This document shows positions 27,467 through 33,014 of a stretch of 64,000 nt of DNA, in pieces (the first letter of the stretch is position 1; each line of letters begins with the position of its first letter). The position numbers and the translations under genes are program-made. This DNA is from Candidatus Marinacidobacterales bacterium. Its GTDB lineage: Bacteria > Acidobacteriota > Vicinamibacteria > Marinacidobacterales > SMYC01. The DNA is taken from assembly GCA_965224085.1 (NCBI GenBank), contig CBDCYI010000011.1, forward strand, positions 736,001 through 800,000, read 5' to 3'. The notes below the pieces were generated by a model that searched no databases, was not told the origin of the DNA, and was given only the letters and a program-made list of their open reading frames with translations.

Positions 27467-27583
27467 CGACACGGCCGATAATACGCCACGCTGCAAAAAA
27501 CACGATGCGCGACTCCTCCAATGAGAAGCTTGCGAAGCCGTATGCGCCCGTGTGATTCTACGCGCCATGGGAGGACTCCAAAA

Positions 27584-28495
27584 ATGAAGCAGGCAAGAAA
27601 GACACAGTTTTTCGTCGCTGCGATCGCGATATTGGCCGGATGGTCAACCTTGGCCGCGGCGCAGGGACAGCGCGCCTTGACCCCGGAAGAGCAAGCCGAG
27701 CGGGAGAAGCGGTTTCAAGCCGAGCTCGTCATGCCTCGACCGGTTGAAGCGCTCGATTCTATCTGGATCGAGGAGCTGACCTGGGTCGAGATTCGTGACG
27801 CGATCGCCTCCGGGAAGACGAGCGTCCTCGTCCCGACCGGAGGGATCGAGCAAAACGGCCCCTACGTGGCGATGGGGAAGCACAACTACATTCTTCAGAC
27901 GGCGTGCGAGGACATCGCGAGAGAGCTAGGCAACGCGCTCTGTGCGCCCATCGTCAAGCTCGTGCCGGAAGGCGATATCGACGAGCCGTCGGGCCACATG
28001 CGCTATTCGGGCACGATCAGCGTCCAAAACGAGACTTTCGAGGCCGTGCTCGAAGACGTCGGCCGGAGCCTGAAGGTGCATGGCTTCGAGAACATCATTT
28101 ATATAGGCGATAGCGGAGGCAATCAGCTCGGCCAAGAGGCGGTGACTGAGCGGCTCAACAAGCGCTGGAAGGACGCGCGCGCGCATCACATCGGTGGTTT
28201 TTACGACAATAACGGGCTCATCAAATACATGAATGACGAGCTCGGGATAACCGAGCCTTCGAGTGACGGCGTTCACGATTCTTATTGGATCACGGCGCTT
28301 CAGATGGTGACGGACCCATCGACGGTCCGCTACGAACAGCGGGTGGCCGCGAACAAAGCGATGGTGAACGGTGTGAGCATCGCGGACCTCGACAAGACGG
28401 TTGCGGTCGGCAAGAAGCTGATGCAGTGGCGCGTCGACAAAACGGTCAAGCTGATTCGCGAATCGATTGGCGCGGGCCATGCGTCACAGCAATAA
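27584..28495 (+). CDS. Creatininase family protein
   Basis: EELTW, PTGGIEQNGP...GKHN, GDSGGNQ. Confidence 0.88.
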   Translation: MKQARKTQFFVAAIAILAGWSTLAAAQGQRALTPEEQAEREKRFQAELVMPRPVEALDSIWIEELTWVEIRDAIASGKTSVLVPTGGIEQNGPYVAMGKHNYILQTACEDIARELGNALCAPIVKLVPEGDIDEPSGHMRYSGTISVQNETFEAVLEDVGRSLKVHGFENIIYIGDSGGNQLGQEAVTERLNKRWKDARAHHIGGFYDNNGLIKYMNDELGITEPSSDGVHDSYWITALQMVTDPSTVRYEQRVAANKAMVNGVSIADLDKTVAVGKKLMQWRVDKTVKLIRESIGAGHASQQ

Positions 28496-28507
28496 GACGC
28501 GCGCTTG

Positions 28508-28577
28508 ATGTCACTTGCTGCCGGCTCCCGCCTCGGCTCTTACGAGGTGGGCTCTGCGATCGGTGTCGGTGGTATGG
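28508..28577 (+). pseudogene. Ser/Thr protein kinase 5' fragment cut in the Gly-rich loop by the IS110 element
   Basis: MSLAAGSRLGSYEVGSAIGVGGM|, matching the RLGxYEI...GxGGMGEVY start of Hanks-type kinases. Confidence 0.85.
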
Positions 28578-28592
28578 ACTCCCCACGCCGGA

Positions 28593-29888
28593 TCAAGAGA
28601 AAACCTTCTTCGTAGGAATCATCGTCGATTCGCTTTTTGTTGTGGACGTCCGCGAGGGGTCGTAAAGAGTTCTTTGTCGAAGCATCGCCATGGCGATGGG
28701 TAGAATGCGGTCCATGACGCCTCTGAGAGCTCTGGCATGGCTGTGGCCCGCGTCGCGAAGCCGATCGTAGTGCTTTTTAAAGTGTGGGTCGCGAAGCACG
28801 GCAGTGCTGGCCCAATGATGGAGAGCGTTATTGAGGGGCAAAGAGCGAGCTCTCCTCATCAGGATAGTTGGTCGCAACTGACCGCGCTTGCCGCTTTTTT
28901 TCGTGACGGGTGCGATGCCGCTGAGAGTCCTGAAGGCTTTGAGATTTCGTAGCCGAATGGGGTCGTGGGCATAGCAGAGCACGGAGGCGAGCACGTAAGC
29001 ACCGACGCCGGGCAAAGAGGCAAGAATGGCAGCGTCGGAGCACTGCTTGTCGTTCAGTGCTTGCAAGCGCTTGAACCACTTCTCGAGATGCTGGTCGGAG
29101 GCACGACGATGTTGTCGAACGAGGAGCAACTGCTGAAGGAGCAGTTCGAGATGCTCAGAAGTAGCTTTGGTGGTTGCATGCGCGACTCGGAGTGGTTTTT
29201 GATTGAGGGTATCGAGGATCTGCTCGGGTTTTACGCGTCGGATGCGGTGTTTTTTAACGAGCGTCTCGATGGTGTGGCGGCTAAGAGAGTTGGGGCTGGA
29301 TTCGAAGAAGAGTTTTAGGAGCTCGCAGAAAAACGCGTCGAGAGCCTTATTCTTTGGCGCGAGCGAGACGAGGTGAGGCCAACAACGAGTAAGGAGTTCT
29401 CGGATCTGCGAGCTGAGGGCAACGTGGTTTTTGACAAGTTGGTCGCGGGTGCTCAACAGCCCGCGCATAGCAAGGATCTCCGGAGGTGGAAGTTGCAAGC
29501 GCTGAAAGCGGTGACCGTCGGTTCTGAGCGAATCGGCGAGAACGAAGGCGTCGCGCCGATCATCCTTGGCGCCGCTCATAGAATGCCGGTCGCGGAAACG
29601 GTCGACCTGCTTGGGATTGATGGAGAAAATGGCGATGGCGTTGTCAAGAAAGAGCTCGACGACGGCTCCATGAGGCTTTTCGATCGCCACTGCGATGCGC
29701 TCGGTGTCTTGCGTGGTCAGTTCCAGAAGCCAGCCGATCGTTTCTGAAAGTCCTTCGCGGCTATGAGGAAAGCCGCGCTCCCCCATAAATTGTCCCCTGG
29801 TATCGACCACGCTGGCCAAGTGAAGCCATTGGCCCAGGTCGACACCGACGAAGAAGTCGTAGTCGAGCTGATTCCTGGAAGAACTCAT
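28593..29888 (-). CDS. IS110-family DEDD recombinase/transposase (431 aa)
   Basis: FVGVD, AIEKPHG, AKDDRRDA (DEDD) and GIAPVTKKSG (catalytic Ser); stop lies inside the inverted repeat. Confidence 0.95.
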   Translation of the reverse strand: MSSSRNQLDYDFFVGVDLGQWLHLASVVDTRGQFMGERGFPHSREGLSETIGWLLELTTQDTERIAVAIEKPHGAVVELFLDNAIAIFSINPKQVDRFRDRHSMSGAKDDRRDAFVLADSLRTDGHRFQRLQLPPPEILAMRGLLSTRDQLVKNHVALSSQIRELLTRCWPHLVSLAPKNKALDAFFCELLKLFFESSPNSLSRHTIETLVKKHRIRRVKPEQILDTLNQKPLRVAHATTKATSEHLELLLQQLLLVRQHRRASDQHLEKWFKRLQALNDKQCSDAAILASLPGVGAYVLASVLCYAHDPIRLRNLKAFRTLSGIAPVTKKSGKRGQLRPTILMRRARSLPLNNALHHWASTAVLRDPHFKKHYDRLRDAGHSHARALRGVMDRILPIAMAMLRQRTLYDPSRTSTTKSESTMIPTKKVFS

Positions 29889-30083
29889 TGCCGTCAGCGC
29901 ATGTGATGTTTCATCGGCCCCTGTACCGGCGCTCGAAGCGCAACTCCCCATTGGATGTCCATCACAAGAAAATTGCCGGCACGCGTGTCCATACCGGGCG
30001 CTCGGAGCGCAGGGCGAAGTATGGCGTTGCCGGCAAGCTGCTGACGAAATCGAAAATAGTTCAAGCTCATCGTGAGATTTGCT
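29889..30083 (-). ncRNA. Putative bridge RNA (target-binding and donor-binding loops)
   Basis: Nested stems (29892-98/30040-46, 29973-81/30028-36, 29902-08/29960-66), two gcgct-N3-agcgc hairpins; loop segments match the junction (GGTATGGAC) and the element end (TGGGGAGT). Confidence 0.85.
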
Positions 30084-30500
30084 CTACCACTGCAATCGAA
30101 GCTGGCGCGCGATGCCACCAGCTCGTGCTGGTTTTTTTCTCGGTTGTTTCGGGCGAAGCACGTCTGCGAGTTTTTCTCGAAGGTAGCGAACATAAGGCGG
30201 GTCTAGATATTCACTTCGCACTTCCTCGAGCACAGGTGAAAAATAGCGAAGGGAGCGAATGGGTTGTAGTGGCTCCTCATGCTCTTGTAGCTCCCGACGA
30301 GCGCAACCCAGAAGTAGGGCGCACTCGAATTCGTATAACGGGACGCCCTGGCGGTAGAGTCGCGTCGCCATGAAGCGATCGTCGCGCCGTGGTCGCTCAG
30401 GTGTGTTCGGAATAGAAACATAGATATCCAAAACCGCCCGGACATAATCGTTTTCTGTTAGAGCGTCGCTCGTGAGCGGTTTATCACTGAGCTTCGACAT
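30084..30500 (-). CDS. IS110 accessory ORF B, hypothetical (138 aa)
   Basis: GGAGG RBS, overlaps the upstream ORF; YVRAVLDIY...IRSLRYFSPVLEEV. Confidence 0.75.
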   Translation of the reverse strand: MSKLSDKPLTSDALTENDYVRAVLDIYVSIPNTPERPRRDDRFMATRLYRQGVPLYEFECALLLGCARRELQEHEEPLQPIRSLRYFSPVLEEVRSEYLDPPYVRYLREKLADVLRPKQPRKKPARAGGIARQLRLQW

Positions 30501-30889
30501 CCATCCACCTCCCGCGTCCGCCGCAGATACAGCATTTGGCATATCCGAAACTGTCAAGCTTCGTTTTCATTGAAAGAACCATCGAGCTCCGTGACCGGAT
30601 CTGTTCTCTGATTCCTACATTGCCCGAGTTACCGACGTGAATGGAACCATGATCCGTTACTTTTTCTTGGTGTCGTCGATACTCACGTTGCCGGTCCGCA
30701 CAATCTCGACTGTCCTTCGACACTTTCTCGATCTTTGCGGTTGTAGCCGCGACACTTTATTAGGCCGGCATGATAAGAGCACGCTTTACCGCAGTAGCAG
30801 TGTCCACGGTCACAGCTCTTGCAGATGTAGAAGGCCTCTGAACAGTTACGACAAAAACGCTGGTACACAACGACTGGTTTGGTGGCCAT
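30484..30889 (-). pseudogene. IS110 accessory ORF A, Cys-rich putative Zn-binding protein with a 1-nt frameshift
   Basis: CRNC...ICKSCDRGHCYCGKAC; removing one base near 30710 continues RDCADRQREYRR...VTDHGS...CCICG. Confidence 0.7.
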
Positions 30890-30947
30890 TTGAGACTCAG
30901 CAAGCGCTGGACTATGGCGTTTTCTCTTGATCCGGCGTGGGGAGTCC

Positions 30948-31921
30948 ATTCCGTACGGATCCTCGTGATGGTACTCGAGCCGGTTGCGCTCGGGACATCG
31001 TCTGCCGTCGTGCGCGACAAACGTGCACTGTCCCCCATCTCGCACCCATACGAAACGTTTCACCGCGGCGGCGATGCCGCGCACACCCGGTGACGTGTCG
31101 GCGTCTTCGACATTCGTTCTCGGGTTCTTCGTTTTACCGAAACGCTTGGCTTCGAGCCGCTCGAGCTTTTCGCTCACCGCCGCGTCGATGACCGAAGCGA
31201 GGTCACTACCGGGAATGAGCGCCTCGAGTCGTTCGAGTTTGTCGCGAAGCTCGGCGCTCGCCGTGAATGTTACTTGATAGCGCGCCGGTGATAGCGGCGC
31301 CACGGTCGGACGTTTTTCAGGTGCTGTCTCACGTGCCTGTGGCGGCTCATTCTCACCCGGCTCACCCGGCTCACCCGGCTCACCCGGCTCACCGTGCGCC
31401 TCTGCTCTTTCTTCACGTTGCTCGTCCGACGGCTTGGAAGGCTTGGACGATCCGGACTGGGCTTTCGGTTGCGGCTTCTTTCGAATCTTCGGTGGAACAT
31501 CCGGTTTCGGAGCCCATTCCGCCACGAGCTCTTCGAGCTCGCGTTTGCTCTTGTGAGTGGCTCTTGCCAAGACCTCTTCGCCATTGGCCTCGGTGAGATG
31601 TTTCGCGATCACGGCGATGCCACACAAGTGAAGGCGTCCATCCTCGAGCATTGTGAGAAGCGCGGGAAATCTGCGTGATAGCCGGGCGGCGGTGATTCGC
31701 CGATAGGCTTGCGCTTCCGATAAATGCAAAACGTCCAAGCAAAAGCGGAACATGGACGGCGCGGCTTCGCGAGCAAAGAGACGACGCGCATCGACCGCAG
31801 CGATATGCGCGACGAGCACGGCCTCGCGACACCGCGACTCCTTGAGGGCGTCCGATAGTCGAACAAGAAGCTCGTCATCCGATAATGCTGAGAGCCATTT
31901 CAATGTGTCCTTTGTAGTCAT
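30948..31921 (-). pseudogene. DUF222-like/HNH endonuclease truncated inside the HNH motif by the IS110 end
   Basis: LSDDELL...LSEAQAYRRI...VWVRDGGQCTF...RC....LEYHHEDPYGM|. Confidence 0.85.
31352..31393. repeat. 9-bp tandem repeat (ctcacccgg)x4.7 encoding GEP
   Basis: Direct read of the sequence. Confidence 0.9.
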
Positions 31922-32354
31922 GCTTTCTTATAACATGGACTTTTTGGACGCTCACCGCTAGCGAGTAACTAACACTATCGGATAGAAACGCTTTCGAAGT
32001 CTTCTTGAACGAAAGAGCACCGCTGTCGCTTCGTCAACGTGGGCAGAGACCCTATCAGCGCGAACGCAAGCTCTTTTTTCAAATCGCGTCGAGAACATTG
32101 TCAAGACAAAAATGAGCTCAACGCAATTTTTTTTTCAACTCTTCCCGGACAGAGCTGGAAACGATGCCCCCGCCCGCGATCTTGTAGCTTGCGTCGGTCG
32201 GGTAAGCAGTTGTGAATTTCCCCTTCGGCGCGGTAACGGGAGAACGGAGGTCGGATGATCAAAGTTCACTCGGGGCAAGTCCGCTAGCACTCGAAAAAAG
32301 CCGCCATCGTCGGGAACTCCTTGGTAGAATAAAAGTATTCAATCGGTAAGAAGA

Positions 32355-33014
32355 ATGGGAGTGCAACGTACACTTTGGGCGCTTTTTCTGCTCCTTTCCG
32401 CGACCCTCGCTTCGGCTCAATCGCTGGGAGACGTCGCGCGCAAAGAAAAGAAACGAAGGGAACAGAATCAACGATTAGGGGCCACGGCCCGTGTGATAAC
32501 CGAGGCCGAAGTTGGCCGGGGCCCGGACGTCGTCACGCGACCAGGAAGCGAGCTCGACAGCAACGCGGATGTCGGCCCCGCTGCTCCCGTCATGCCACCA
32601 GGAGCCCCGGCCCCCGACTTCTCGCTCCTTGACCGCTCCGGTCGTTCGTACTCTCTCGCGAACTTTCGCGGTCGGCCGCTGCTGATCGATTTCTGGGCAA
32701 CCTGGTGTGGTCCCTGCCGCAAGACCATGCCCGAGATCCAGACTTGGCACCGGAAATACGGGCGCGAGCTTCAAGTCGTTGGGATCAACATCGAAGGCAA
32801 CAGCCCGGACGTTCTCGCTTATCTCGACGAGGGTGGCTACACCTTCCCAGTGTTGTTCGATTTGGGAAACTGGGACTCGATCGTCGCGACGAGCTACGGC
32901 GTGAACTCGATCCCTCATACGTTTCTCATCGATCGGGACAGTCGAGTTTTGTACGCGGGTCATCCTCAAGGGCTGACCGAGGAGCATATCCAAGCAGCCA
33001 TCGCGGCCCGCTAG
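32355..33014 (+). CDS. TlpA-family thiol-disulfide oxidoreductase
   Basis: APDFSL, DFWATWCGPC, IPHTFLID. Confidence 0.9.
   Translation: MGVQRTLWALFLLLSATLASAQSLGDVARKEKKRREQNQRLGATARVITEAEVGRGPDVVTRPGSELDSNADVGPAAPVMPPGAPAPDFSLLDRSGRSYSLANFRGRPLLIDFWATWCGPCRKTMPEIQTWHRKYGRELQVVGINIEGNSPDVLAYLDEGGYTFPVLFDLGNWDSIVATSYGVNSIPHTFLIDRDSRVLYAGHPQGLTEEHIQAAIAAR

Follow-up and report, generated by a model that had tools for sequence, protein, structure and literature searches.

Why does an IS110-family element lie inside the glycine-rich-loop codons of a Ser/Thr kinase gene, and what directs it there? The question is raised by a 64,000-nt stretch of the genome of a Candidatus Marinacidobacterales bacterium (contig CBDCYI010000011.1, positions 736,001 to 800,000), called the window below, with positions counted from its first letter. 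An earlier note, made from the letters of this stretch, had proposed that the element is RNA-guided and uses the conserved codons of kinases as its landing pad. This proposal is supported by the other copies in the same genome (G000) and by relatives elsewhere. The element is very probably an IS110-family element with a bridge RNA whose target loop spells the antisense of the kinase glycine-rich-loop codons G-M-G-(E/D)-V. At the level of DNA sequence, the copies show the site specificity, the antisense orientation, the duplication of a 2-nt core, and the covariation of guides with flanks and with element ends. By analogy with IS621, the RNA would be made, be bound by the recombinase, and direct strand exchange at CC. 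The parts of the locus that bear on this reading are as follows.

28508 to 28577, plus strand: 5' fragment of a Hanks-type Ser/Thr kinase gene, translation MSLAAGSRLGSYEVGSAIGVGGM, cut within the glycine-rich loop
28571 to 28575: right target, ATACC on the element strand
28576 to 28577: CC core
28578 to 30918, minus strand: IS110-family element copy of subfamily A, 5'-truncated, 2341 nt, 99.7% identical to G000:C5:1762845-1765444
28578 to 28592, minus strand: element right end, last bases ...GGCGTGGGGAGT, which form the left donor arm; kept in 11 genome copies or fragments and in metagenomic relatives
28593 to 29888, minus strand: intact IS110-family DEDD recombinase, 431 amino acids (Pfam PF01548 and PF02371; NCBIfam NF033542)
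29895 to 30050, minus strand: bridge-RNA-like structured region, target loop and then donor loop, from the fold, the pairing in the alignment, and the covariance model
30012 to 30020, minus strand: left target guide (LTG) ACUUCGC with core CC, in the same sense as the left target flank; other copies have AC(N)TC(N)C-CC as their left flank
29989 to 29995, minus strand: right target guide (RTG) GGUAUGG, complement of CC-ATACC, matching 28571-28577 in 7/7 positions
29943 to 29950, minus strand: left donor guide (LDG) UGGGGAGU, identical to the right end
29920 to 29926, minus strand: right donor guide GUACAGG, complement of CC plus TGTAC, the true left end

The kinase fragment has its start codon at 28508, and the reading frame after 28577 enters the element. 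A 23-residue N-terminus is all that remains of this kinase. The same position of the glycine-rich loop is cut in other kinases, both in the genome copies and in metagenomic relatives.

Recombinase and the structured region upstream of it

The recombinase matches DEDD_Tnp_IS110 (PF01548) at 6e-30 over the whole model (1-155/155) and Transposase_20 (PF02371) at 2.7e-11. It scores 161.8 bits against NCBIfam NF033542, "IS110 family RNA-guided transposase", for which the cut-off is 140. The N-terminal DEDD/RuvC-like domain and the C-terminal Tnp domain of the IS110 family are both present.

The 195-nt gap upstream of the recombinase gene corresponds to 29889-30083. Two internal loops, each capped by a GCGCU-N3-AGCGC hairpin, had been described there in the earlier note, and they were reproduced in the fold of 29885-30095 (minus strand, 211 nt). 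In the minimum free energy (MFE) fold, the first loop is closed by the stem UUGCCGGCA/UGCCGGCAA and the second by GUGAUG/CAUCAC. Forty distinct RNAs from the clade to which the element belongs (the kinase clade) align at 86% mean column identity. In this 40-sequence alignment, a four-helix structure composed of the two closing stems and the two hairpins (29 pairs) is 98.3% paired, and the slid controls of the same structure are 19-51% paired. Seven of the 29 pairs show compensatory changes on both sides, a number reached by 0/500 shuffles. The RNAalifold consensus, which formed pairs between stretches of the donor guides, was dropped; the four-helix structure, taken from the fold and the alignment, was tested instead. 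Judged from the DNA, the structure is conserved and compensated in the manner of an RNA, and its existence as RNA would be expected from the work on IS621.

The target loop spells kinase codons

The strings read in the two loops by the earlier note are present on the minus strand (ACTTCGCCC at 30020-30012, GGTATGG at 29995-29989, and TGGGGAGT at 29950-29943). The target loop of the window copy, ACUUCGC-CC / GG-UAUGG, is the antisense of GGT ATG GGC GAA GT, which encodes G-M-G-E-V. The general target on the element strand is 5'-AC(N)TC(N)C-CC-AT(N)CC-3', the antisense of GGN ATG GGN GAN GT. A target of 7 + 2 + 5 nt had been derived earlier from the RNA alone, and the flanks of other copies read as predicted. 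The claim that GGTATGG at the junction 28571-28577 equals the RTG in all seven positions is correct. Once strands are exchanged, the AC after the RTG (29988-29987) would pair with the right-end bases GT as a handshake guide; the handshake had been proposed for these bases, and their position is as in IS621 according to the available text of PMC11208158.

In the 40-RNA alignment, the only variable columns in the 9-nt LTG and the 7-nt RTG are the bases opposite the third positions of GAN, GGN, and GGN. The remaining guide bases are invariant or nearly so, and the sole exception is L123, with ACGGUACCC. The guides of subfamily A are ACUUCGCCC and GGUAUGG, and those of subfamily B are ACGUCGCCC and GGAAUGG. 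Subfamily A reads GGT..GGC GAA. Subfamily B reads GGA..GGC GAC, so that its left guide spells GAC (Asp).

Insertion sites in the same genome

In G000, the genome that contains the window (6.87 Mb, 12 contigs), 13 matches to the region were found. The genome contains 11 element right ends and nine left ends. The right flanks of 6/11 are kinase N-termini in antisense, ending in GxGGM, or in QCGM in C11b (the window, C4:1482119, C4a, C5a, C9a, and C11b). The left flanks of 5/9 continue with GEVY, GDVY, or GVVY. The flanks that depart from this pattern are weighed below. Sixty-one matches to the Pfam Pkinase model were found in G000, and two of them begin at model position 13 exactly at left-end flanks: C5:1765446-1766168 (positions 13-259, 1e-52) and C4:1685155-1685574 (positions 13-153). 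The GEV half of the motif, which the earlier note had described as missing from the window, is therefore found at the left ends of other copies, where GEVY, GDVY, and GVVY run into Pkinase domains.

When the element and one CC are removed in silico, an open reading frame (ORF) matching a kinase hidden Markov model (HMM), built from 25 G000 kinases, is restored across the junction in 17/19 cases. The restored ORFs match the HMM from position 1 in 16 cases and from position 2 in one; the two failures are C11c and C5b of G000. The element splits at least six kinase genes, in a genome with 27 intact GxG[GAS]MGxV sites. No intact GxGGMGDV site is left in G000. Exact 14-mers in G000 number one for the A guides, in a kinase on C5, and zero for the B guides. 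The earlier note had written that the element knocks out signalling kinases. The genes are physically interrupted, but loss of function as a phenotype is a further claim that the sequence does not carry.

Insertion sites in other genomes and metagenomes

Scanning a single genome from each of 185,579 species for the pattern yielded 60 loci, and the only close relatives among them are L014 and L040. L014 (61% identity) is recorded as a metagenome-assembled genome (MAG) of Acidobacteria, and L040 (85% identity over residues 1-307) as a "Candidatus Marinacidobacterales" MAG. These two are the only loci outside G000 among the 60 with a kinase, which is antisense, on the left side, and matched from HMM position 12-13. 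The flanks of L014 encode ...AIGAGGM and GEVYRARDT..., and its guides AACUUCACCC and GGGAUGG stand against ACTTCGC-CC and CC-ATCCC. No recombinase homologue at E<=1e-100 was found in a 400-genome sample of the phylum besides the window's own genome. Among genomes that represent species, this clade is seldom met.

The scan of metagenomes gave 80 loci, 47 of them at 61-90% protein identity (L078-L124) and 33 at 36-43%. In the 47 loci together with L014 and L040, the right flank encodes ...GxGGM in 33/33 loci having one, and the left flank encodes G(E/V)VY in 19/19. This is the enrichment of flanks in glycine-loop-coding DNA that had been anticipated for copies outside the window. The kinase HMM gave 26 matches in 25/47 loci, all antisense, and 23 of them start at position 12-13. 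The remaining three are one neighbouring kinase, one match from position 8, and one from position 17. On the 33 loci at 36-43% identity, the kinase HMM gave no match.

At L014:2440-2470 and L040:2660-2690, the antisense of the left end provides an in-frame ATG or GTG (M-(P)-A-S-V-Q) before GEVY..., so that a kinase lacking the glycine-rich loop could in principle be translated. The G000 copies have no such in-frame start before the kinase remainder. L079 and L080 have an identical right flank, from one kinase N-terminus, and different left flanks and target guides. Copies may have exchanged sequence here, or a single site may have been entered more than once.

Guide bases covary with the flanks

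Guide-flank events were taken from the 10 right and 9 left flanks of G000 plus those of other loci, and were de-duplicated on 30 nt of flank, which left 40 right and 28 left events. The 7-mer of the RTG shows no mismatch in 23 events, one in 15, and two in two, so that 38/40 have zero or one mismatch; for the LTG, including the core, 19/28 do. The wobble base of the RTG equals the flank in 24/40 events, against a permutation mean of 10.8, and 0/100,000 permutations are as high. The two wobble bases of the LTG match in 32/56 cases against a permutation mean of 20.65 (p = 0.00025); the permutation p-values are optimistic, because events from related copies are not fully independent. Covariation of guide and target, proposed earlier as a check, is significant at the wobble bases of both guides. 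For the two subfamilies in G000, the right flank is ATACC in 2/3 A copies and ATTCC in 3/7 B copies or fragments and at the inverted relic in the window. Three B left flanks start with GD (C9a, C11b, and C5d).

Donor loop and element ends

All nine left ends in G000 begin with TGTACGCTTGC (one copy has TG-ACGC), and all 11 right ends finish with the bases of the left donor arm. CC flanks both sides of every full copy. There is a dinucleotide core at both junctions and there are no terminal inverted repeats. The donor guides match both element ends. The true left end TGTAC lies outside the window and is hence invisible in the window sequence. The equivalence of the second loop with the element end, noticed earlier, holds: the string at 29950-29943 equals the right end.

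Where the ends differ, the guides differ with them. In 4/4 loci (L090, L098, L099, and L116), the guide GUAUAGG accompanies the left end TATACGC, and in L098 the left donor guide GGGAAGU stands alongside the right end GGGAAGT. The earlier note had cautioned that the LDG does not cover the CC core cleanly. This is true, as GGGGAGU is followed by UG or UU instead of CC, and the pairing of LDG and core, opposite GG, is not clean. It is no anomaly, since the LDG of IS621 is also shorter than the LTG (8 nt versus 9 nt in the available text of PMC11208158).

Distant relatives share the scaffold and not the target

Distant relatives are IS110 loci at 35-43% identity (L015-L073 and L125-L157), of which 67 RNAs were aligned. 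A covariance model built from the 40 clade RNAs, as had been suggested earlier, is matched over its full length immediately ahead of the recombinase gene in 84/91 distant loci, with E-values down to 6e-17. Kinase-type guides (AC.UC.CCC or GG.AUGG) are present in 0/67 distant RNAs, and no distant relative has kinase flanks. GUGGGGAG is kept in 41/67 and GUACAGG in 53/67. Since the donor guides are kept and the target guides are changed, the donor module is largely common and the target module was rewritten in the kinase clade. In ~28/67 distant loci, a TGTAC(G/A)C motif is found 33-42 nt before the RNA, the usual terminal position. Among these relatives, L023-L063 and others form a large group of Acidobacteriaceae-type IS110 elements (35-40% identical) with target loops of the CCGCAACGC / AAUCGG type. 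Further outgroup groups carry G/C-rich guides.

Proposed mechanism and the fate of the interrupted kinases

As in IS621, a complex of recombinase and RNA would pair four guides. The donor loop (GGGGAGU and GUACAGG) would pair with an excised copy at the place where its right and left ends are joined. ACTTCGCCCATACC would be the target into which a donor composed of right end, CC, and left end integrates. Exchange at the CC core would leave the element antisense in the kinase gene, between GxGGM and G(E/D)VY. The joined ends, inspected by eye, read TTGATC-17 nt-TACGCT, which might serve as a junction promoter in a circular intermediate with right and left ends joined; a consensus scan for a sigma-70-like site on the minus strand gave none.

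Kinases are a large paralogous family with a conserved motif, so that many landing sites exist in every kinase-rich genome. Between lineages, the guides vary only at bases that face degenerate third-codon positions, so that any one lineage is adapted to a subset of the kinase paralogues. A bolder extension, which we regard as speculative and rather unlikely as a whole, is that the target is defined at the protein level. The guide bases facing fixed codon positions would be kept by selection and the three wobble-facing bases would diversify, so that sister lineages address different paralogues and hosts escape only by synonymous recoding, in a third-position arms race. The accessory proteins described below would be cofactors for transcribed intragenic targets or for excision control, and insertion would be a reversible switch acting paralogue by paralogue.

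A related alternative is that the element is mainly a reversible switch useful to the host, whose precise excision restores kinases and produces phase variation of signalling, and not a purely selfish element with kinases as its safe harbour. Only the 2-nt core is duplicated on insertion, so that clean excision would restore the reading frame, and the precise excision of IS492, of the same family, appears in the reference list of PMC11208160. However, several of the interrupted kinases have decayed (C9a, C9b, and C5b have stops or short ORFs), and several copies are truncated or rearranged, which looks like permanent loss. A role mainly as a switch is therefore improbable, less likely still than the extension above.

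Element layout, copy number and accessory genes

Boundaries were determined by BLAST of window 27501-32500 against G000, followed by extension from the C5 copy. The copies share sequence with the window up to 30918, not 30083, and the other copies extend 259 nt further. The element limits of 28508 and 30083 in the earlier note do not stand: 28508 is the start codon of the kinase, and 30083 is the stop codon of an internal ORF. Its size of 1.5 kb was also too small, as the genome copies show ~2.6 kb and two further ORFs. The full element is 2600 nt in subfamily A and 2637-2639 nt in subfamily B; C9a has an internal deletion. The layout is left end, Cys-rich ORF, second ORF, structured non-coding region, recombinase, and 15 nt of right end.

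30084 to 30557, minus strand: second accessory ORF (157 amino acids in A, 139 in B), predicted five-helix protein, 34-89% identity in 25 open relatives
30484 to 30889, minus strand: Cys-rich accessory ORF (MATKP...CxxC...CCICGRRG), split by a frameshift in A (30686-30889 and 30484-30723), intact in B

Three copies of subfamily B are 100% identical over 2637 nt, and three copies of subfamily A are 99.7-100% identical; A and B differ by 12.6%. By this sequence identity, the element multiplied recently in G000. The Cys-rich ORF is open in subfamily B at L077:3359-4087 and frameshifted in all subfamily-A copies, including that in the window. As A multiplied recently despite the frameshift, the Cys-rich ORF is either dispensable in cis or supplied by B.

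With tblastn, 37 clade loci gave a single segment matching the Cys-rich ORF and 39 gave one matching the second ORF, with identities of 30-90%. Neither accessory ORF was found at E<=1e-4 in the distant loci by tblastn. Among the homologues chosen, 26/28 of the Cys-rich ORF and 25/26 of the second ORF are free of stops. In a 27-sequence alignment of the Cys-rich protein, C18, C25, C28, C35, C39, C122, and C125 are invariant, and a basic helical hairpin is predicted. The AlphaFold2 models have pLDDT (predicted local distance difference test) values of 78.1 for the second ORF and 72.6 for the Cys-rich ORF. Neither protein scores above the cut-offs in Pfam or NCBIfam, the ESM Atlas gives "hypothetical protein" clusters only, and Foldseek of both models against PDB gave no match at E<=0.001.

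One further truncated copy was observed. At G000:C4:1482061-1483633 (L003), a subfamily-A copy is truncated at the equivalent of window 30092 and abuts the interior of a kinase gene. The adjoining kinase is read in the direction of the element, and an intact near-target, ACTTCGCCCATCCC (one mismatch), lies ~200 nt upstream in the opposite orientation.

History of the window copy

Compared with the C5 copy, the window copy starts at element position 260; the 259 nt before it, with the left end TGTACGC, are absent. The recombinase and the RNA region are both intact despite the truncation. The following features adjoin it.

30919 to 30945, plus strand: inverted right-end remnant, 27 nt, followed by core CC at 30946-30947 and ATTCC at 30948-30952; relic of a second copy
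30953 to 31921, minus strand: DUF222-like gene, 5' part, broken off behind ...EDPYGM (codons GGA ATG G)

The remnant was recognized from a 34-nt inverted match to 28571-28604 with one mismatch and was counted as the right end C11:766945. The Pfam DUF222 match of the adjoining gene is weak (20.2 bits, under the cut-off), and the homology of this gene to a paralogue ends at 30950-30952. Its site is a non-kinase one and has the right half-target in common with the kinase site. The GEV codons are missing from the window because the copy in it is truncated and abuts the inverted right-end remnant in another gene.

The simplest history, inferred from this arrangement, is that the kinase received one copy and the DUF222-like gene received another, in the opposite orientation, behind ...TAC GGA ATG G, and that the DNA between them was then deleted. 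The deletion would have taken the left end of one copy, almost all of the second copy, and the 3' part of the kinase. No reciprocal joint of this proposed deletion was found among the nine left ends of G000. The C9 left-end fragment (747943-748786) was considered as the missing 3' part of the kinase and rejected, as its flank is a 16-codon kinase remnant only and could not be paired with the window kinase. The joint 30918/30919 is non-homologous. A mechanical 412-amino-acid chimeric ORF (30683-31921) runs across it, joining the N-terminus of the DUF222-like protein to the Cys-rich ORF of the element. On the other side, 13 nt separate the interrupted kinase's start codon from the end of a creatininase-family gene at 27521-28495 (PF02633, 1.7e-27), which is ordinary context.

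An assembly artefact from near-identical repeats, with no real truncation, is another explanation of this arrangement. The genome has 2.6-kb repeats at 99.7-100% identity, and such repeats can mislead assemblers. The joint, however, is off any repeat boundary common to other copies, and both sides are unique junctions (the 27-nt remnant and the DUF222-like gene). We consider an artefact very unlikely. Contigs of run X4 cover 29403-30621 and 30623-30918 at 100% identity and end at the joint, which is neutral on this point.

RNA guidance or protein recognition

Several observations weigh against guidance by a bridge RNA. The MFE of the region is -79.2 kcal/mol (z = -1.83), and 9/200 shuffles fold as well, so that the fold is modest evidence when taken alone. 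The Rfam 15 scan of 27500-32500 at E<=10 gave three chance-level matches, none in the RNA region, a negative that is limited in that the presence of any bridge RNA model in release 15 is not established. In the clade, about 570-1130 nt separate the RNA from the left end, whereas the RNA of IS621 and of ~28/67 outgroup loci is terminal. Guide and flank do not always agree. The RTG wobble base is mismatched in 16/40 events, and the 9-mer of the LTG has no mismatch in two events, one in 17, two in six, and three in three; to this is added the optimism of the permutation values mentioned above. Among the right flanks in G000, 2/11 are kinase-like but degenerate (C5b, with an in-frame stop, and C5d, ...LYEVTATGGM) and 3/11 are non-kinase (C11c, the C4:1704400 fragment with ...FMADKM, and the DUF222-like gene). 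The left flanks of 4/9 do not continue with the kinase motif (C5b, C5c, C5d, and C11c, a 463-amino-acid non-kinase ORF).

The expression data comprise nine runs, all as Logan contigs of relatives at 88-99% identity, including three "metatranscriptomic" marine-sediment runs with small shares. The only run on record as RNA has contigs over 29497-29920 and none over 29947-30128, and contigs cannot show transcription. Two runs have contigs over the RNA region, and their RNA origin is guessed only. Runs X1-X3, from marine sediment, have contigs 88-99% identical over 28400-31100, some of which run into a kinase-like right flank (X1 with a loose end at 28560).

In the usual IS110 layout, a compact insertion sequence with a single gene has its RNA at the left terminus. 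Here, one or two conserved extra ORFs stand between the left end and the RNA, and the distance from the left end to the recombinase in the kinase clade is 757-780 nt or 1163-1327 nt. Apart from this layout and a curated Rfam match, all features of IS110 bridge recombinases that are testable here are found.

The same observations could be read as recognition by protein. The recombinase or an accessory protein would read the kinase site by protein-DNA contacts, and the upstream region would be a leader or a binding site. The failure to detect RNA from the region in the run contigs, the frequent LTG mismatches, and the two clade-specific proteins that are absent from the outgroup, one of which is Cys-rich and possibly zinc-binding, are in line with this. 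Contacts by protein do not account for the wobble-facing guide bases that covary with the flanks, or for the donor guides that covary with the element ends. In the outgroup, the RNA scaffold and mostly the donor guides are kept while the target loop and the insertion sites are changed, and the stems have compensatory changes. The recombinase family is also the one with demonstrated RNA guidance, as stated in the available text of PMC11208160. Protein recognition is accordingly very unlikely, slightly more so than the assembly artefact, and guidance by a bridge RNA remains our preferred explanation. That the kinase flanks are carried along when a larger segment is duplicated, or are spread as kinase paralogues recombine, without independent insertions, would fit the common right flank of L079 and L080 with their unlike left flanks and guides, a sign of some exchange between copies, but it can practically be dismissed because the 40 right and 28 left flanks differ in sequence, the homology between copies is bounded precisely by TGTACGC and GGGGAGT, flanked on either side by CC, and removal of the element yields different full kinase ORFs in 17/19 cases.

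Comparison with known elements

The features shared with IS621, as described in the available text of PMC11208160 and PMC11208158, are many. Both have a recombinase with DEDD and Tnp domains and a structured upstream RNA with target and donor loops. In both, the LTG has the sense of the left target and of the core, the RTG is complementary to the core and the right target, and the donor guides match the right and left ends. Both have a 2-nt core at both ends, an LDG shorter than the LTG, and two bases after the RTG that fit the donor end as a handshake. There are also differences. The core is CC here and CT in IS621. The RTG is 7 nt here and 4 nt in IS621, although longer RTGs are reported for some orthologues. 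The target here is coding DNA of a paralogous gene family, whereas that of IS621 is an extragenic repeat. The element is 2.6 kb, with the RNA 0.6-1.1 kb inside, behind one or two accessory ORFs, whereas the RNA of IS621 is at the left terminus.

Other IS110 members target repetitive extragenic palindromic (REP) sequences, attC sites, or inverted repeats of transposons (ISPpu10, ISPa11, ISKpn4/ISPst6, and IS4321/IS5075; available parts of PMC11187229 and abstracts). As in these ISPpu10-type members, the landing site here is repeated and conserved, with many per genome, and is entered in a fixed orientation. According to the same sources, their sites are non-coding structured repeats or recombination sites, whereas here the repeat exists only through conservation of a protein motif. 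Unlike theirs, as far as these sources describe them, the guides here accommodate synonymous variation or follow it.

Homing endonuclease genes, inteins, and group I and II introns also sit in conserved motifs of protein genes, but they splice out and spare the host gene. As in these homing elements, conservation at the protein level makes the site persist and recur in new hosts. Unlike them, the present element interrupts the gene, and its site would be recognized by an RNA guide.

No paper linking IS110, bridge RNA, or seekRNA elements to kinase genes or glycine-rich-loop codons was found, although supplementary target-site tables (e.g. Supplementary Data 2 of PMC11208160) could list such sites. 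The term "kinase" has 0 occurrences in PMC11208160, PMC11187229, and bioRxiv 10.64898/2026.10.21.760802. New here are the target class, the confinement of guide variation to wobble positions, the two clade-specific accessory genes, and the internal position of the RNA. In the available text of bioRxiv 10.64898/2026.10.21.760802, boundary-finding pipelines search within 1000 nt of the recombinase gene. Since the left end is up to 1327 nt upstream, such pipelines could miss these elements.

Implications

Much current work is devoted to bridge RNAs as tools for programmable recombination, yet as natural targets only extragenic repeats, attC sites, and transposon ends have been described so far. 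The present element offers a ready-made system with a CC core and a 7-nt right guide, which is available for testing. Its dozens of independent insertions, with known guides and with mismatches concentrated at defined positions, amount to a test by nature of how far mismatches are tolerated. A natural lineage appears to have its guide programmed against the codons of a conserved motif, so that a whole gene family is used as a landing pad. It is also an example of a transposon that removes members of a signalling family one after another.

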